Shown here: one piece after another, positions 7,570-31,742 of the stretch | How the letters are laid out: each line of letters begins with the position of its first letter | Position numbering within the stretch: the first letter of the stretch is position 1 | From: a virus | DNA: 64,000 bases | Reading direction: 5' to 3' (one strand) | Virus record (IMG/VR): IMGVR_UViG_3300025147_000002 | The notes under the pieces: generated by a model | The model's input: the letters and a program-made list of their open reading frames with translations, nothing else | Database searches by the model: none | Told to the model about the DNA's origin: nothing | Translations under genes and position numbers: made by a program

Positions 7570-7590
7570 ATTAATTTAATACTTAATATT

Positions 7591-7932
7591 ATGAATTTTG
7601 GAGAAGCAATTGAAGCAATTAAAAAAGGTAGTTTAGTTATTCGTGAAAAATGGAATAATGAATGTACATTTATTTTCATGAGACCAGAAGATAATTTGTC
7701 TTTTAATTTTGTTATAAATAATATTGAATCATTACCTAAATCACTTAAAGATTATTATAAACAACTTGTAGATTTAAGTATAAGTGATGATAATAGAGTA
7801 TTTACAAATAATAGACAAATTACATTTGCACCATGTATATGTATGAAAATAACAGATGAGTATATTATTAATGGTTGGATAGCAAGTCAAGAAGATATAC
7901 TTGCTACTGATTGGGAAGTTATTTGGCCATGA
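7591..7932 (+). CDS. DUF2829-family protein (Tad2-like candidate)
   Basis: N-terminus MNFGEAIEAIKKGSLVIREKWN and C-terminus GWIASQEDILATDWEVI match the two hallmark ends of DUF2829 as I recall them (M-FgeAlealk-G-kv-R-gW ... W-pSq-DlLA-DW). Confidence 0.65.
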   Translation: MNFGEAIEAIKKGSLVIREKWNNECTFIFMRPEDNLSFNFVINNIESLPKSLKDYYKQLVDLSISDDNRVFTNNRQITFAPCICMKITDEYIINGWIASQEDILATDWEVIWP

Positions 7933-25281: not shown

Positions 25282-25374
25282 CTGTAGATACAACTGTAGA
25301 TACAACTGAATATACAACTATTAACTTTAAAATAATAATTAACTTTAAAATAATAATTAACTTTAAAATAAAAA
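25282..25374. repeat. two adjacent tandem repeat arrays (3 x 12 bp, 3 x 18 bp)
   Basis: First array: ctgtagatacaa (25282-25293), ctgtagatacaa (25294-25305), ctgaatatacaa (25306-25317). Second array: ttaactttaaaataataa (25321-25338; 25339-25356) and ttaactttaaaataaaaa (25357-25374). The arrays fill the whole gap between the stop at 25281 and the ATG at 25376. Confidence 0.95.
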
Positions 25375-25375
25375 C

Positions 25376-25660
25376 ATGATATCAAATCAATTAAGTGATC
25401 TATTAGGAGAATATGGTGATTTTCCAATTAAAGGTACTGTAAAAGTTATTGCACCTGCTGGTTTATACTTTGCTTCTGCAAATGTATTTGGTGATACAAC
25501 TATGACTGCAATGGAAGTAAATGGAGTTGCTAATAATAGTGATTCATATTTTAATAAAATTATGCCTAATGGTATGTGGCATGTATTTACTAGTAGAATT
25601 ACTGCTATTACTTTATCTGGTGGTGAACTACAATGTTGGACAAAACCTATAGGAGGATAA
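25376..25660 (+). CDS. small beta-rich protein, hypothetical (94 aa)
   Basis: Clean AT-rich ORF between the two GC-rich patches. No motif recognised. Confidence 0.5.
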   Translation: MISNQLSDLLGEYGDFPIKGTVKVIAPAGLYFASANVFGDTTMTAMEVNGVANNSDSYFNKIMPNGMWHVFTSRITAITLSGGELQCWTKPIGG

Positions 25661-25662
25661 CT

Positions 25663-27303
25663 ATGTTAGGTATAACAACTATCGGTATAAAAACTGGTAT
25701 AGGAATAGTTAGACAAGGGGCACATGTGAACCTTTCGGAGCAATTCAATAACGGGAAACTTGTATTGAATTTTGACGATGGGGCAACATCTATGTACACA
25801 GATGCCCTACCTCTATTTGTCGAAAAAGGTGTTACCGCTACGATATGGGCAAATGGAATATTTCCAGATGCTAATGGAGGAACTGGCACGGCTAATTTTT
25901 GTACGTGGACGCAATTGCAGGCAATGTATGCTGCTGGCATCGACATACAATGCCACACATATTCACATATTCGATGTACCGAAAAAACAGATGGAGAAAT
26001 AGCAACTGATTTATTGCTTAATAATACTGCGTTACTCGCTTATGGAATACCAGCACCCACCTGTATGGCATGGCCAGAGGGATTATATGATGCTCGAACA
26101 AAATCAGCCGTTGCGCCATATCGCAAAATGGCGAGATGTTCAGCACCCAATTATGTTTTTACGTATCGTAGTTCTGACAAATACGCCTTAACGTCCTTTT
26201 GGCTTGATAATGGTACGGATGCAACCACAGTAACGGCAAAATCACTACTTGACGGGGCAAAAGCGAATAAGGCGGCAATATTAATGTCAGCACATGGAGT
26301 AAGCGTTGCGGGGAGTTCTGCAACCGTAAAAACATCAAGACTGGCCGAAATAATCGATTATGCGTTAAGTATTGGCGTTGATATTATTTCCGCGAAGCAA
26401 CTTGAAACTCAAATGATGCATAATGAGATATTTGTAGAACCATCTACAAATTTAACCATTACGTCAACAGGTACAGGTGCTGGTGTCGCAAATCTTGTTC
26501 TTGATGTTACAGAGGACACGACATTTACGATTGTAGGTAATGCAAGATTCTATACGGATGCAGGAGGAATAGCTAATGAATCAAATACATGGTATGTAAA
26601 GGCTGGACACGGAATCATTTATATTAAATGTAGTTCTGGTGTATCTACGATAACGGTAGGCAACAGGAAACTATACAAGATAGAATCATGGACTGCAAGT
26701 ACTAACGCTCCATCTCTGGGCGGTAACATATCGTTATTTATTAATTTAGTTATTTTATCGGTGACAGGCAATAACAACCTTTCTGGAAGTATATCAGGAT
26801 TAATAAAATTAATTAAATTATGGTGTTTAGGAAGCAATACTTTATCTGGCAGTATTGCATATCTTCTTTATTTGGCTCAGTATTGGGTTGTTGGTAGTAA
26901 TACAATAGGTGGAGATGCTTCTGGAAATAGTTTATTAACGTCATTTATTGTTGATGGGAACAGTGCAATTTCCGGTAATTCTGACAATATGACGCTTTTA
27001 CAAAGCGCAACGATTGCAAAAGGCACATTCCAATTTTTACGCACAATTACAAATAAACAACTAAGTAGCCTAACAATAGGGAATATAATTCTTGCATCTG
27101 CAAGTATTAATAAAATATTGGCAGACTTCGTGGCCAATAAAGACGAAGCAAAACCATTAACAACAAGAAATATATCATTGTTTGGTTTAGGCGGTTCAAG
27201 TGCGCCAACGGGTCAGGGATTAACGGATAAGGCGACACTTCAGGCATATCACTCTCCAAATAATGATTTAGCATATGTTGTATGGGCGGTTGGAACTCGT
27301 TAG
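25663..27303 (+). CDS. CE4 (NodB-homology) polysaccharide deacetylase fused to LRR-like repeats
   Basis: CE4 motif 1 NFDDG (nt 25768-25782), motif 2 HTYSH (nt 25954-25968), and a later AILMSAH (LxH-type motif). The C-terminal half has ~24-aa repeats with L..L.....GNN.LSGSI (nt ~26695-27045). The ATG at 25663 is preceded by AGGAGG and does not overlap the previous gene. The track ORF opens at an ATG at 25633. Confidence 0.75.
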   Translation: MLGITTIGIKTGIGIVRQGAHVNLSEQFNNGKLVLNFDDGATSMYTDALPLFVEKGVTATIWANGIFPDANGGTGTANFCTWTQLQAMYAAGIDIQCHTYSHIRCTEKTDGEIATDLLLNNTALLAYGIPAPTCMAWPEGLYDARTKSAVAPYRKMARCSAPNYVFTYRSSDKYALTSFWLDNGTDATTVTAKSLLDGAKANKAAILMSAHGVSVAGSSATVKTSRLAEIIDYALSIGVDIISAKQLETQMMHNEIFVEPSTNLTITSTGTGAGVANLVLDVTEDTTFTIVGNARFYTDAGGIANESNTWYVKAGHGIIYIKCSSGVSTITVGNRKLYKIESWTASTNAPSLGGNISLFINLVILSVTGNNNLSGSISGLIKLIKLWCLGSNTLSGSIAYLLYLAQYWVVGSNTIGGDASGNSLLTSFIVDGNSAISGNSDNMTLLQSATIAKGTFQFLRTITNKQLSSLTIGNIILASASINKILADFVANKDEAKPLTTRNISLFGLGGSSAPTGQGLTDKATLQAYHSPNNDLAYVVWAVGTR

Positions 27304-27367
27304 TTCGCATTTGGAAACAACTTGAACTATATATCTATCATTTATTATTAATTTTATACTTATTACT

Positions 27368-27463
27368 ATGAAACAAGTTATCAGACTTTATAAAAATATA
27401 GTTGCACCATCTCCTCTTCCAGATGAAGATCTTTCTCTTATTATAGCTGATGGTGGTAGTTGA
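27368..27463 (+). CDS. micro-ORF A (31 aa), paralogue of micro-ORF B
   Basis: Hand-translated: MKQVIRLYKNIVAPSPLPDEDLSLIIADGGS. It is preceded by atatctatcatttat (27331-27345) and ttattactATGaaa, both of which recur upstream of micro-ORF B. Confidence 0.35.
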   Translation: MKQVIRLYKNIVAPSPLPDEDLSLIIADGGS

Positions 27464-27574
27464 CATTTAAGTTTATATCTATTGTAATATAGTTCTTTGC
27501 TTTATTTACTAAACGAAAGTAAAGTTATTAAATAATATCTATCATTTATATTTACACTTAATACATTTATTACT

Positions 27575-27670
27575 ATGAAAACTATTAGAATTTTTAATGA
27601 AACTCCTACTACACCTGAAGATGAAGATCTTCCTCCTATTAGAACTGGTGGTGGTGTGCCTCGTGTATGA
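27575..27670 (+). CDS. micro-ORF B (31 aa), paralogue of micro-ORF A
   Basis: Hand-translated: MKTIRIFNETPTTPEDEDLPPIRTGGGVPRV. Same leader elements (27535-27549). Its stop overlaps the ATG of the downstream 4-TM gene (ATGA at 27667-27670). Confidence 0.4.
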   Translation: MKTIRIFNETPTTPEDEDLPPIRTGGGVPRV

Positions 27671-28107
27671 ATAAATTAGTTTATAAAATAATAGATATTT
27701 TATCTATTGAGATTATTAAAGTAGTTCCTATTATAATCACTATGTGGTTACTAGTAGTAACTACTTTACTATTAAATCATGTTAAACATGCAGATTTAGA
27801 ATATTCTATACTTGGACATTCACTTATATATAATGTTAGTTGGTTATGTCTATCTATTAAATATAGATTTTGTATTTGGCATAGAGTATTAATATATAAT
27901 CTTATACTTATAAATATACTTGAATGGATTAATAATAGATTTCAAGTATTTACTAATAAAGAAGTAATATACACTATGACTGTATTACTTTGTGTAACTA
28001 TATTTATTTCATTAATACTTAAATTTAAATATGGGTGTATTAAAAGAGTTACCAATAATCATATTAAGAAAATTACTACTACATGCTATAGAAATGATAG
28101 ATACTAA
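27667..28107 (+). CDS. polytopic membrane protein (about 4 TM), hypothetical
   Basis: 146-aa ORF with four hydrophobic segments (VVPIIITMWLLVVTTLLL, SLIYNVSWLCLSI, VLIYNLILINILEWI, YTMTVLLCVTIFISLIL). Basic C-terminus. Confidence 0.55.
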   Translation: MNKLVYKIIDILSIEIIKVVPIIITMWLLVVTTLLLNHVKHADLEYSILGHSLIYNVSWLCLSIKYRFCIWHRVLIYNLILINILEWINNRFQVFTNKEVIYTMTVLLCVTIFISLILKFKYGCIKRVTNNHIKKITTTCYRNDRY

Positions 28108-28357
28108 TCAATGTCCTCGTATATCGGATGATGATATTATTATAATATCTAATATTTTAAATCCTCCTAAAACACTTGGTCGAGAAGCAGCAGCTAAACA
28201 TCTTAAAGTTAGTTTAACTGAATTTCATAAACTTAGAAATGATCATATTATACCTGATCCACGATCTGTTGTAGGACTTAAAGAATTACAATACTACACA
28301 TTAGATTTAGATAAATGTTTGCCATTAATACAATTACGAGCTACTAACACACGTTAG
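28094..28357 (+). CDS. HTH_17 / excisionase-MerR-like DNA-binding protein
   Basis: LGREAAAKHLKVSLTEFHKLRNDHIIPDP fits the L-x-x-EAA-x-x-L-x-VS-x-x-T-x-x-x-L-x-x-x-x-x-IP helix-turn-helix pattern. The track ORF opens at 28031. The internal ATG at 28094 cuts the overlap with the membrane gene to 14 nt. Confidence 0.55.
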   Translation: MIDTNQCPRISDDDIIIISNILNPPKTLGREAAAKHLKVSLTEFHKLRNDHIIPDPRSVVGLKELQYYTLDLDKCLPLIQLRATNTR

Positions 28358-28377
28358 TGGCTCTTTTGTTTAGTATA

Positions 28378-28385
28378 TATCTTTG
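28378..28385 (+). promoter_or_regulatory. -7 box candidate (TATCTTTG)
   Basis: Matches TAnnTTTG, 28 nt upstream of the ATG at 28414. A TTTG at 28365-28368 is only 9 nt upstream, too close to serve as a canonical -33 element. Confidence 0.35.
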
Positions 28386-28413
28386 AGTATTATTAATTTA
28401 ATACTTATAAGTT

Positions 28414-29226
28414 ATGACATTAGGTGAATCAGCCGTAGTACCCGTATTAGGTGGAAACGGCATGGGTGGAGCAGGTTTAGGTATTGGTGGTGGTGTACTT
28501 GGAGGTCTACTTGCGGGTGGATTAGGTGGTGCGCTAGTAGGTGGATTAATGGGAAATCGTGGTGGATGGGGTGGAAATGGTTATGGTGGTGGTGCTCCAG
28601 CTGCATCAGCAGTAGCATCTGAAATTGTATTAACTCCAACACTGAATGCAATTCAAAATCAAATTAATGGGATTAGTGATACACTAAATGCTCACAACAT
28701 TGATGCAGGTTTAACATCAATTAATCAGAACATCTCCGGCACATCTCGTGATTTAGGAAGAGATGTTGCTAATCTTTCGACTGCTCAGGCGAATGGTAAT
28801 TTTGTAACACTTACTTCTATCAATGGATTAGGTCGTGATGTAGCTGCACAAGCTAACCAGAATGCACTTCAACAGCTGAATAGCTTTAATAATCTTACTA
28901 CAACTACATTACAGGGTTTTAATAGTTCTGCGATGCAGATTCAAAATGCAACTAACCAAATTATTGCACAAGGTTCTGCTAATGCTGCTGCTGTTGCTAC
29001 TGGATTTTGTAATATTAGTAAAGAATTAGCAACTTGTTGTTGCGAAGTAAAACAAATGATTCAGTCAGATGGTAATCTTACTCGTGCACTTATTAATGAT
29101 ACTAACATGCAAAATCTTAGGGATCAACTTGCAACGGCTAATGGTAAAGTTAGTAACAATGAACAGAATCAGTATTTATTAAATACTATTCTTACTCATG
29201 TTAAACCTAGTTCTACAATTGTTTAA
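28414..29226 (+). CDS. glycine-zipper / N,Q-rich protein with Cys cluster, hypothetical
   Basis: N-terminal ~65 aa: GGNGMGGAGLGIGGGVLGGLLAGGLGGALVGGLMGNRGGWGGNGYGGG. This is followed by an N/Q/A-rich helical region with an internal LGRDVA repeat and a CNISKELATCCC cluster. The gene is flanked by a promoter-like box and a strong terminator. Confidence 0.7.
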   Translation: MTLGESAVVPVLGGNGMGGAGLGIGGGVLGGLLAGGLGGALVGGLMGNRGGWGGNGYGGGAPAASAVASEIVLTPTLNAIQNQINGISDTLNAHNIDAGLTSINQNISGTSRDLGRDVANLSTAQANGNFVTLTSINGLGRDVAAQANQNALQQLNSFNNLTTTTLQGFNSSAMQIQNATNQIIAQGSANAAAVATGFCNISKELATCCCEVKQMIQSDGNLTRALINDTNMQNLRDQLATANGKVSNNEQNQYLLNTILTHVKPSSTIV

Positions 29227-30763: not shown

Positions 30764-31168
30764 ATGATGATACAATCTGATATACCTGTTAATTATCCTG
30801 TAGATACACTTCCATCTATACCTGGTACTGTGATAGCTACATATCAGCAACCTTTAGATTTTATGAGTATGGTAAATGTACCTTTCATAGTTTGTACTAT
30901 AACTACTATATATTTTATAATCAAAAGTATTGAAGGTGGTACAGGTAAAGCAATTAGTACATGGCGTAAGAGTGCCATCGTTATATTAGTTGGTGCTATA
31001 TATGCTACGATATTTAATATATATTTTAATGCAGATCATAGTGCATTACTTCTATCATTTGTTGTTTCTACATTTGGCTATGATATAGTAATCAAACCTT
31101 TACTACGTAAGATTGGTATTCATTATAAAGATTATAAAACAACAGATAAACCTATAACTAAAATATAA
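30764..31168 (+). CDS. membrane protein (about 3 TM), holin-like topology, hypothetical
   Basis: 134-aa ORF with segments VPFIVCTITTIYFII, IVILVGAIYATIFNIYF and LLLSFVVSTFGYDIVI. Basic C-terminus. Confidence 0.5.
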   Translation: MMIQSDIPVNYPVDTLPSIPGTVIATYQQPLDFMSMVNVPFIVCTITTIYFIIKSIEGGTGKAISTWRKSAIVILVGAIYATIFNIYFNADHSALLLSFVVSTFGYDIVIKPLLRKIGIHYKDYKTTDKPITKI

Positions 31169-31172
31169 TAGT

Positions 31173-31742
31173 ATGGCTGTTAAAAAGATTGTTGAACCTA
31201 CAGTAACAGATGCAACTATGGCAGATATTATAACCCTTATAAATGATAAATTTACAAGTTCAGATAAGTATTCTAAATTACAATTTGATGCAATTCAGTT
31301 ACAACTTAAAATAGTTACTACTGATGTAGCTAATGTAAGAGCAGAGGTTAAAGATATAAATGCTAAATTAGTACTTATAGATAAAGCTGATGCAATACAT
31401 TATTTAGCTTGTCCTAATACTCTTCAAGCACCTAAAGTAGAAACTATGCTTGCTGAATTTCCTGCTGTTAAAGATGTTACAGATGAATTAACAATTATGC
31501 GTAAATGGTTTAAACCTACTTTAATAACTAGTGCTGTAGCTATATTGGTTGCTATAATTACTTTTGGAGTTACTATATTTAAAGTACAACCAGAAGTTAA
31601 TATACTACAAGATAGAGCTACAGTTAATGCTAAAAACATTCAATCTAATACTAATGCTTTAACTGAAGAACAACTTAGACAAATTAATGGTATTCTACAT
31701 AAAGGTAATTGGGATAAAGAAAATACTACTATAAAACCATAA
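31173..31742 (+). CDS. single-pass membrane / coiled-coil protein, hypothetical
   Basis: 189-aa ORF with one central TM segment (TLITSAVAILVAIITFGVTIF) flanked by helical regions. Confidence 0.5.
   Translation: MAVKKIVEPTVTDATMADIITLINDKFTSSDKYSKLQFDAIQLQLKIVTTDVANVRAEVKDINAKLVLIDKADAIHYLACPNTLQAPKVETMLAEFPAVKDVTDELTIMRKWFKPTLITSAVAILVAIITFGVTIFKVQPEVNILQDRATVNAKNIQSNTNALTEEQLRQINGILHKGNWDKENTTIKP

Follow-up and report, generated by a model that had tools for sequence, protein, structure and literature searches.

A coupled micro-gene and membrane-protein cassette beside a probable fibre-exchange scar in a divergent crAss-like phage

Introduction

In a 64,000-nucleotide stretch of viral DNA (hereafter the window; IMG/VR record IMGVR_UViG_3300025147_000002), we found that a 31-codon open reading frame (ORF), uORF2, is very likely a genuine micro-gene that overlaps the start of a gene for a 146-residue protein with four predicted transmembrane helices (4-TM), and that the apparent second copy of this micro-gene just upstream, uORF1, is in all probability the by-product of an exchange of tail-fibre modules. 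An original prediction, made from the letters of this DNA alone, had described the locus as a duplicated unit of about 205 bp encoding twin 31-residue micro-ORFs, followed by the 4-TM protein and a helix-turn-helix (HTH) protein. Our overall reading, one functional cassette plus one scar, is offered as a whole at just short of an even chance, and a lysis-associated role for the cassette, with a holin-like 4-TM protein and the micro-protein as its gate and probable partner, is a somewhat more tentative proposal drawn from gene content and order.

CrAss-like phages, common in the environment, also rank with the most abundant human gut viruses, and many of their late accessory genes are annotated only as ‘hypothetical’. 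The window corresponds to the structural arm of one such phage, a divergent one, from a source contig of 95.5 kb: its large terminase subunit (TerL), portal and major head protein match crAss-type PHROGs, and CrAss_Ring_1, CrAss_Ring_2 and DUF7841 genes lie downstream of the locus. A DNA similarity search of the GenBank phages with the locus matched nothing. The loci and contigs compared with the window are referred to below by labels such as L003.

Results

uORF2 is very likely a micro-gene coupled to the membrane protein gene

uORF2 (27575 to 27670, + strand) encodes the 31-residue peptide MKTIRIFNETPTTPEDEDLPPIRTGGGVPRV and is the first cistron of the cassette; its stop codon overlaps the ATG of the 4-TM gene as ATGA, so that the overlap with the 146-residue frame noted in the original prediction is indeed present. 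We found a small ORF ahead of the 4-TM gene in 15 of 15 distinct lineages examined. In 14 of these it ends within -4 to +2 nt of the 4-TM start, against a baseline of 4% for random ATGs in the same DNA, and in 13 the two frames share an ATGA or a 1-nt overlap. L003, L005 and L006 each hold a single ORF of 32 to 35 residues with the ATGA overlap, encoding MKKFTKIYDVPKPPIPPPDDDLPPIRTGGSVPRV, MKQFTRIYEIIPVPPPKPPDEDLPPIRTGGGVPRV and MKTLIRIYNDPPTNPPTDDIPPIRTGGGTPRR, respectively.

The substitutions in this ORF are of the coding type. Over the last 16 codons, the proportion of synonymous differences (pS) between the window and L003 and L005 is 0.53-0.54 and that of nonsynonymous differences (pN) is 0.03-0.09, while the variable sites among micro-ORF orthologues number 5, 3 and 10 at the first, second and third codon positions. 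For comparison, the pN/pS ratio of the 4-TM gene is about 0.4-0.6. Furthermore, in the csAssE group (61 loci, with an ORF of 40 codons) we counted 11 synonymous polymorphisms, many of them at n=20-28, versus 3 nonsynonymous changes, all singletons. Stops or frameshifts in relatives had been set beforehand as the observation that would speak against translated peptides; the frame proved open in all 15 lineages, with mostly synonymous changes, an outcome that favours a translated uORF2 and indicates that the peptide proximal to the 4-TM gene is almost certainly made and under purifying selection.

These data also bear on the view that the repeat is regulatory DNA only, that is, tandem promoters or operators with neither micro-ORF translated. 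The leader box and a 15-mer within the leader (described below) are promoter- or operator-like and are found elsewhere too. Yet the substitution pattern of the uORF2 orthologues and of the 61 csAssE loci, the frame that stays open across the lineages and a peptide motif kept over deep divergence leave this reading largely refuted, and we regard it as scarcely credible.

The motif in question lies in the tail of the peptide and consists of an acidic run followed by PP(I)RTGGG. It is retained where the accompanying 4-TM proteins are only ~27-37% identical, as in L009 (...NDPPIRTGGGTTP), L011 (...EEPPRTGGGTGGKQ), L077 and the csAssE group. In L077 the tail, ...ATPRTGGGTGGGTKPDQ, is the C-terminal end of a 111-residue membrane protein, and in the csAssE group it carries RQGG twice (...ARQGGEV...MRQGGSVGGK...); the micro-ORF of L012 ends in ...EKPTTGGGSIPTKP. 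A hydropathy analysis of the uORF2 peptide revealed no signal peptide and no hydrophobic segment, and the product is predicted to be cytoplasmic, with an abundance of acidic, Pro and Gly residues. Searching a database of 5.8 billion proteins with a profile of the micro-protein returned only the input sequences, plus one match at E=0.1, and the micro-ORFs are unmatched in Pfam and PHROGs.

uORF1 is most probably a scar of a tail-fibre exchange

uORF1 (27368 to 27463, + strand) is a chimeric, truncated ORF of 31 codons, in which ~27 codons homologous to the micro-ORF are followed by codons of a fibre-gene relic. The leader and start context common to the units at 27331 and 27535, as first described, are confirmed by exact matches (TATCTATCATTTAT at 27332 and 27536, TTACTATGAAA at 27363 and 27570), and a 37-nt block starting at 27421 and 27619 is 86% identical. 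This similarity is homology and not chance, because the same leader and peptide recur in other phages. It is limited to about 115-127 nt, however, covering the leader and ~27 codons at 71% identity. Of the proposed duplication of ~205 bp this part stands, whereas the rest of the first unit (27449-27535) is the relic of another gene.

This relic, 87 nt long (27449 to 27535, + strand), is the decayed 3′ end of an ancestral upstream fibre gene and contains a frameshift and an in-frame stop. In L003, L006 and L007, it aligns with the end of the fibre gene located 5′ of the micro-ORF (...DGGGN[TS]GWTFKF[IV]PIVMWFF..RKVIK, then stop). When the last 100 nt of the L006 and L003 fibre genes were compared with the window by blastn, identities of 74-76% over 74-86 nt were obtained (E=9e-12 and 3e-11), and 27449 to 27535 was by far the best match to these fibre ends in all 64 kb. 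The switch from micro-ORF-like to fibre-like sequence occurs at GATGGTGGT, where the micro-ORF (ACTGGTGGTGGT) and the fibre gene (GATGGTGGTGGT) have microhomology. The junction sequence GGTGGT(GG) (27449-27457; 27634-27645) is a G-rich island in a genome of 30% G+C, and presumably resembles the Escherichia coli Chi site GCTGGTGG.

The coding part of uORF1 has lost what its counterparts conserve. It is coupled to no ORF and lacks the PPIRTGG tail; in the DLPPIRTGG block it differs from uORF2 by 5 nucleotides, all of them nonsynonymous, and through them residues that never vary among the orthologues are lost (P, P, R, T and G). The two peptides have 10 of 28 residues in common. The earlier argument, that the peptide pattern is kept while the nucleotides diverge, fails between the copies, for which pN (0.32) is not below pS (0.28). 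The pair alone thus provides no evidence of selection on the peptides, and such evidence comes only from the orthologues of uORF2. Furthermore, uORF1 is as far from uORF2 (71% identity) as it is from the orthologues of other phages (69-75%), which argues against a recent tandem duplication in place.

That both micro-ORFs are functional, the duplication having been selected since two related peptides are needed, is accordingly a reading to which we give very little weight. uORF1 does retain the leader, an identical start context and an open frame of 31 codons, for which we estimate a chance of ~0.08 from the base composition of this genome, and its locus is identical in all compared contigs of this phage, with no within-species polymorphism. 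Against this, the relatives have one micro-ORF only, the last codons of uORF1 derive from the fibre relic, its tail has been altered by the five nonsynonymous changes, it lacks a coupled gene and pN about equals pS between the copies. The original view of the twin peptides as a selected duplicated unit is hence not upheld, since copy 1 has neither the conserved tail nor a coupled gene and the spacer is the relic of a different gene.

The gene immediately upstream (25633 to 27303, + strand) is tail-fibre-like and carries a polysaccharide deacetylase domain (Pfam Polysacc_deac_1, E=8e-20). Its G+C content is 0.34-0.35, compared with ~0.30 genome-wide, and other genes occupy its position upstream of the same leader and micro-ORF in L003/L006/L007 and in L005. 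With different genes at that place in relatives and a raised G+C content, the fibre does look acquired, as had been suggested, and it is most likely the incoming module whose acquisition created the scar, lying outside the cassette. Under this hypothesis, the incoming segment would have brought in the deacetylase fibre together with a leader and the beginning of a micro-ORF of its own, and would have replaced most of the old fibre gene, with the junction falling inside the 3′ end of that gene at the GGTGGT(GG) microhomology. Ahead of the intact cassette, this would have left the chimeric 31-codon ORF, the 87-nt relic of the fibre gene and a second leader. Such an event is in keeping with the general mosaicism of tail-fibre modules, in which different fibres likewise stand upstream of the same leader and micro-ORF and a relic of the displaced gene is left; it differs from the usual fibre-swap scars in that the junction lies within a micro-gene, giving a new 31-codon ORF and a second leader. 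One point weighs against import: no donor genome for the uORF1 segment was found, and uORF1 may instead have arisen by an old duplication followed by decay.

Two further observations concern the fibre region. In L101/L104, a contig of the same phage from JGI 3300010331, the deacetylase fibre is called as 471 and 57 residues instead of 546, which points to a frameshift or nonsense variant in one population. A short tandem repeat, AACTTTAAAATAATAATT, is present in about 2.5 copies at 25311-25372, immediately 5′ of a gene for a 94-residue protein at 25376.

The 4-TM protein belongs to a large, apparently phage-restricted family

The 4-TM gene (27667 to 28107, + strand) encodes 146 residues with four predicted helices, a basic C-terminal tail and the motif GHS...(R/K)FCxWHR...YxKxGC. 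The four-helix description from the first reading is borne out in part: AlphaFold2 models four long helices (residues 3-38, 42-65, 70-92 and 98-122) at low confidence, with a predicted local distance difference test (pLDDT) score of 56, whereas a simple hydropathy scan finds the first and fourth helices only. Residues 119-146 have a net charge of +7, the tail is basic across the family alignment and the short loop preceding helix 3 is basic as well; tail and loop together suggest an N-in/C-in topology.

Three relatives in public assemblies are 72-79% identical to this protein. A family profile detected 82 cluster representatives at E<=1e-3 and 223 places in IMG/VR, on contigs of mostly 80-155 kb, consistent with a large family restricted to phages. 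P21, G50, S63, C69, W71 and H72 are each present in at least 90% of 74 family sequences, and the C-terminal YxKxGC is also kept. No consistent match over these 74 members was found in Pfam, PHROGs or NCBIfam; weak single matches to DUF7442 and DUF7443 were not reproduced across them, and this identity was rejected. Neither a sequence profile search of the PDB nor a search of BFVD with the family or the model, which is poor, gave anything significant. We found no relative in a single scan of the GTDB genomes with one 4-TM motif pattern, none in IMG/VR with the single 4-TM or glycine-zipper protein as query, and none in a JGI metagenome scan with the 4-TM alignment.

A winged-HTH gene and a conserved terminator complete the cassette

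The third gene (28031 to 28357, + strand) begins 77 nt before the 4-TM gene ends, in the overlap previously described, and encodes a 108-residue protein with an N-terminal helical domain and a C-terminal winged HTH (wHTH) of the excisionase/AlpA/MerR kind. Gene callers begin this gene at 28094 (87 residues) or, in L099, omit the 4-TM gene entirely. The longer start at 28031 is supported by the conservation of the overlapped N-terminus: the first 21 residues are conserved in P0007, LRKLL..AIEM is found in all orthologues, and within the overlap (28031-28107) the HTH frame is conserved whereas the 4-TM frame is variable.

The earlier assignment to HTH_17 holds through an orthologue and the predicted fold, although the window protein itself has no Pfam match even at E<=10 and none in PHROGs. 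Close orthologues score below threshold against PF12728 (E=0.023 and 0.16), and the L012 protein, which is 40% identical to that of the window (E=1e-12), reaches 27.4 bits against a cut-off of 27. The model has a pLDDT of 67 overall and 83-85 over the HTH. In Foldseek searches its top matches in the PDB were CvkR, NmlR, the RdfS excisionase and RacA (E about 0.04-0.1), and in BFVD an ‘Excisionase’ (E=5e-6), the HTH protein of the crAss-like phage cr128_1 (E=2e-5), PrtN and AlpA. A PDB profile search gave CvkR as the sole HTH-type match, at a non-significant E=1.5; the 5.8-billion-protein database returned only proteins of the same clade, and tblastn against phages returned none. The C-terminal 60 residues thus fold, in the model, like the MerR/Xis-type wHTH of HTH_17, excisionase, AlpA, PrtN and MerR proteins, from which the protein differs by an additional conserved N-terminal helical domain with a conserved Cys. 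The wHTH part is truncated or missing in L010, L011, L077 and L091-L094, which indicates that it is accessory to a core pair formed by the micro-ORF and the 4-TM gene. Since the domain is absent from several lineages, an identity as the small terminase subunit (TerS) was rejected.

The cassette is preceded by the second of two leaders. Leader copy 1 (27331 to 27367, + strand) contains the box ATCTATCATTTA and TTAATTTTATACTTA, 5 nt 5′ of the ATG, and looks like a promoter or translation-initiation leader; copy 2 (27535 to 27574, + strand), which carries the same repeats, is the resident, orthologous one and has the same box in relatives. The arrangement of ATCTATCATTTA, ~20-25 nt of A/T-rich sequence and ATGAAA is kept in L003, L005 and L006, with a fixed distance from box to micro-ORF. 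At the other end, an intrinsic-terminator-like hairpin (28338 to 28373, + strand) with an 11-bp stem and a T-run closes the cassette at the HTH stop; it is kept in L006, L007 and L008, with one compensatory pair (G-C to A-T). Comparison across phages delimits one bounded unit, self-contained and predicted to be transcribed late: the leader, the overlapping ORFs of uORF2, the 4-TM protein and the wHTH protein, and a conserved terminator. The arrangement of peptide, membrane protein and DNA binder recognised in the original prediction is real and is unannotated in the libraries searched. Rfam gave nothing on the locus except sub-threshold noise.

The same cassette is found in csAssE-Sib (OR575929.1), a 151-kb genome from the human gut, as WOZ57278 (40 residues), WOZ57279 (138 residues) and WOZ57280 (129 residues), all annotated as ‘hypothetical protein’. 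The order there is a carbohydrate-binding fibre, the small ORF, the 4-TM homologue (37.5% identity over 59% of the window protein), an HTH-like gene overlapping its 3′ end and a ring protein, without duplication or scar. Its micro-ORF, like uORF2, is under purifying selection; unlike uORF2, its product is Lys-rich and has two RQGG motifs, and the ORF ends 62 nt before the 4-TM start with no overlap. At the syntenic place in p-crAssphage and cr127_1 we found no recognisable equivalent of the cassette.

Several short sequences recur at the locus. The 15-mer TTAATTTWATACTTA inside the leader has 3 exact copies in the window (7571, 27348 and 28393), against 0.45 expected at up to 1 mismatch, and all three lie on the + strand, 5-6 nt ahead of the ATG of a Tad2-like gene, uORF1 and a glycine-zipper gene. 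It may be a phage promoter or translation-initiation leader common to otherwise unrelated genes. The Tad2-like (Thoeris anti-defence 2-like) ORF is at 7591-7932 (Pfam PF11195, E=1e-18), and in its leader (7571-7585) the 15-mer TTAATTTAATACTTA, which also stands ahead of uORF1 and the glycine-zipper gene, lies 5 nt upstream. The heptamer TATCTAT occurs 7 times in ~770 nt (27332-28103), versus 68 times across the whole window on both strands. An inverted copy of the leader box (13 of 14 positions) is located at 28090-28103, at the start called for the HTH gene and within the AIEMID codons; it is present in L003 and L005 and lost in L006, and could serve the wHTH protein as an operator or simply result from coding constraint.

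Lysis genes recur beside the cassette in relatives

Published accounts of crAss-like phages place the lysis genes (lysin, spanin) within a late structural unit near the tail-tube or ring genes and, in the portions consulted, identify no specific holin (PMC10136315; 10.1101/2021.08.26.457843). In six lineages related to the window, endolysins of three enzyme families lie within 0.7-2.6 kb of the micro-ORF/4-TM pair, on either side. L011 has a protein with a transmembrane (TM) segment and a coiled coil, then a PF11860 muramidase (E=3e-35), directly after the module; L077 has the same layout, with a PG_binding and GH19-like gene two genes downstream. A GH19 (L014) or GH24 (L020) endolysin lies two genes upstream, the intervening gene encoding 204-205 residues with an N-terminal TM segment, and in L092/L093 a GH19-like gene follows ~2.5 kb downstream. 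In L009/L090, which are in full synteny with the window, a GH24 gene and then one for an N-terminal TM coiled-coil protein follow ~2.5 kb downstream, after the DUF7841 gene. That the enzymes come from three unrelated families and are found to either side of the pair is what a lysis neighbourhood would be expected to show, and no other small multi-TM holin candidate was noticed in these endolysin-bearing loci. A PAPS-reductase-like gene (a weak, sub-threshold Pfam match) follows the micro-ORF/4-TM module in L012 (3744-4661) and L091 (4018-4842).

We know of no work that pins down holin/antiholin function in the Crassvirales. Given the repeated presence of endolysin and spanin-like genes next to the pair in relatives, the 4-TM protein would most likely be a holin-like or lysis-timing membrane protein and the micro-protein an antiholin-like coupled partner or regulator. 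The 25 nt ahead of the 4-TM ATG are G+C-rich, unlike the other leaders of this 30% G+C genome, which are A/T-rich, and this suggests that the 4-TM start lacks a dedicated initiation region. Under this hypothesis, ribosomes would reach the 4-TM start mainly by termination and reinitiation at the AUGA, and the amount of membrane protein would be held at a fixed, low level by translation of the micro-ORF. The micro-protein would probably have a second action, in trans, on the 4-TM protein at its cytoplasmic face, because its conservation goes beyond the needs of coupling, the distance from motif to stop is variable and in L077 the tail is attached to the 111-residue membrane protein. An accessory regulatory role, of the AlpA/PrtN/excisionase type, would fall to the wHTH protein.

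Holin/antiholin pairs and lysis dosage are exemplified by lambda S105/S107, T4 T with RI/RIII and P1 LydA/LydB; in MS2, ribosomes enter the L gene by reinitiating once they have terminated in an overlapping frame. The cassette is similar to such systems in having a small membrane protein with a basic, cytoplasmic tail in a late region that in relatives is near endolysin and spanin-like genes, and in the predicted dependence of the expression of this protein on a second small product in an upstream or overlapping frame. It is different in that the four helices carry invariant Cys/Trp/His/Arg residues with no sequence or profile similarity to holin families, and in that the partner is a separate, soluble 31-residue peptide instead of a dual-start isoform or a periplasmic protein. 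Of the features of a holin, small size, predicted helices and a basic C-terminal tail are thus present and family similarity is absent; endolysin adjacency is present in the six related lineages and not in the window or the csAssE group. Two other identities were examined and rejected: a programmed frameshift fusing the micro-ORF to the 4-TM gene has no slippery site, and the frame offset is that of ATGA or TAATG overlaps, and the Pro-rich micro-protein lacks the signal peptide and lipobox Cys of an o-spanin.

A number of points weigh against the lysis reading. The link to lysis genes, not seen in the original prediction, is visible in relatives only: within the 64 kb, neither tblastn searches with GH19, GH24 and muramidase sequences nor Pfam on the scanned ORFs turned up an endolysin homologue, and none is near the cassette in the csAssE group. 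The window contains a more canonical holin-like candidate, a 134-residue multi-TM protein with a basic tail (30764-31168), directly preceding a 189-residue TM and coiled-coil protein (31173-31742); this pair (30764-31742) occupies the syntenic spot of the L009/L090 GH24 lysozyme and N-terminal TM coiled-coil protein, so that the 4-TM protein need not be ‘the’ holin. Known holin families show no similarity to the 4-TM protein in Pfam, NCBIfam, PHROGs, PDB and BFVD, its model is of low confidence (pLDDT 56) and its near-invariant Cys/Trp/His/Arg motif, in a family that is only ~25% identical, is unusual for holins and hints at a cofactor, catalytic or specific binding site. The link between the micro-protein and the 4-TM protein is drawn from gene order and coupling only. 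Finally, the micro-ORF tails of L014, L020, L091, L092, L094 and L017 are Pro-rich without RTGGG, which indicates that one conserved binding motif is not universal.

Several of these points favour a serious rival, in which the 4-TM protein has a role other than lysis, as a superinfection-exclusion protein, an envelope or lipid-linked modification enzyme or a tether controlling the wHTH protein, with the micro-protein as its partner and the proximity to lysis genes due simply to the way in which late accessory genes generally cluster between fibres and ring proteins. The invariant FCxWHR, GHS and GC motifs suggest chemistry or metal binding over a pore, the window and the csAssE group have no nearby endolysin, the other holin-like gene of the window adjoins a spanin-like gene, and the cassette always follows fibre or receptor-binding genes. 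This is countered by the three unrelated endolysin families at 0.7-2.6 kb on either side of the pair in six lineages, by the lack of a noticed competing small multi-TM candidate in those loci and by the absence of similarity of the 4-TM protein to any enzyme or superinfection-exclusion family. We judge a non-lysis membrane role to be rather unlikely, and less likely than the lysis-associated role. The small toxin/immunity or superinfection-exclusion unit put forward in the original prediction may nevertheless apply.

A second alternative is that uORF2 is purely a cis-acting leader, whose nascent polyproline/RTGGG segment pauses the ribosome and controls 4-TM initiation while the released peptide has no function. 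TnaC and SpeFL are leader or arrest peptides of this general kind. We compared uORF2 with regulatory arrest peptides, namely SecM, MifM, VemP and the ApdA/ApcA RAPP class, as described in the sections consulted of three reports (PMC7897499, PMC10951233, PMC12992588). The resemblance lies in a short upstream ORF with a conserved C-terminus ahead of a membrane-related gene and in a Pro plus R-x-G element; conservation peaks in the C-terminal 12-16 residues, which would be in the exit tunnel near termination, Pro-rich tails are found in most of the 15 lineages, and both the frequent overlap with the 4-TM frame and the G+C-rich stretch before its ATG fit as well. However, the distance from RTGGG to the stop is 3, 4, 5, 6, 9 or ~11 residues depending on the lineage, the csAssE ORF ends 62 nt early and in L077 the same tail terminates a 111-residue membrane protein. 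The tail, PP(I)RTGGG(V/T)P.., is not among the RAPP/RGPP/RAPG/RAGP-type arrest motifs named in the consulted sections of two of these reports (PMC10951233, PMC12992588), the window peptide has no N-terminal signal or TM sensor, and RNAalifold on four orthologues gave -5 kcal/mol with 0 compensatory pairs and the 4-TM start unpaired. uORF2 thus differs from the arrest peptides, as those sections present them, in its variable motif-to-stop distance and in lacking a named arrest motif, a sensor segment and a conserved hairpin, and the gene downstream of it is not a Sec or YidC component. The pure arrest-peptide reading therefore fails on each of the four features tested (fixed motif position, known motif, sensor segment and mRNA hairpin), and we consider the cis-only explanation improbable. 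Of the leader-peptide control put forward in the original prediction, only the weak sense of translational coupling is possible.

A third alternative has the micro-protein processed or exported, as an arbitrium- or Agr-like signal, as a double-glycine precursor cut by the 4-TM protein or as a diglycine decoy of the ubiquitin (Ub)/SUMO type. The tail has a conserved R-[TQ]-G-G ahead of a short, variable end, Cys and His are near-invariant in the 4-TM partner, and an HTH protein is encoded in the same operon; the likeness of RTGG/RQGG to the LRGG/QTGG of Ub/SUMO, and that to Agr, are our presumption. The peptide, on the other hand, has no signal peptide, there is no receptor of the tetratricopeptide-repeat (TPR) type, the sole DNA binder being a 108-residue protein without TPR, and none of the genes called in the ~6 kb to each side was seen to encode a C39/ABC transporter. 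Only 3-11 residues follow the GG and several lineages have no GG; the hydrophobic positions are off what we take to be the double-glycine leader consensus, and no peptidase family matches the 4-TM protein. uORF2 thus departs from arbitrium (AimP/AimR) in having neither an N-terminal secretion signal nor a large TPR-HTH receptor alongside, and from double-glycine/C39 systems in having neither a sizeable core after GG nor an adjacent transporter. The peptide signal or sensor circuit suggested at first is accordingly not supported, given the missing signal peptide and receptor-type partner, and we regard processing or export as highly improbable.

Within the preferred lysis reading, a more specific version is that the pair forms an undescribed two-component lysis-control system, widespread in crAss-like phages, in which the peptide, produced in a fixed ratio through termination and reinitiation, binds the 4-TM protein or is cleaved by it after Gly-Gly, so that the pair times lysis and supplies the holin or antiholin function of these phages; we think this version rather doubtful.

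A separate glycine-zipper unit follows the cassette

Downstream of the terminator lies a separate unit (28375 to 29226, + strand), with a leader containing TTAATTTAATACTTA followed by a gene for a 270-residue glycine-zipper protein, a frequent syntenic neighbour of the cassette. This protein (28414-29226) is 67-68% identical to the L012 and L020 copies, whose 4-TM proteins are only ~35% identical to that of the window, and only 50% identical to the L006 copy, though the L006 4-TM protein is 72% identical. Such discordance indicates mosaic exchange between adjacent genes.

Discussion

Taken together, these comparisons describe a conserved, unannotated three-gene unit whose first member, of 31-40 residues, is of a kind that gene callers and databases easily miss, and whose membrane protein belongs to a family that counts at least 82 cluster representatives and is missing from Pfam, PHROGs and NCBIfam. 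The neighbouring scar is most probably a clean record of the swap of a tail-fibre, and hence host-range, module, and it suggests that conserved small genes at module borders can act as junctions. It also carries a warning, because ‘twin micro-ORFs’ such as these can be recombination debris. If the lysis-associated role is true, the cassette would provide a testable handle on the timing of lysis in the Crassvirales, and its micro-protein would be an example of a translationally coupled regulator.

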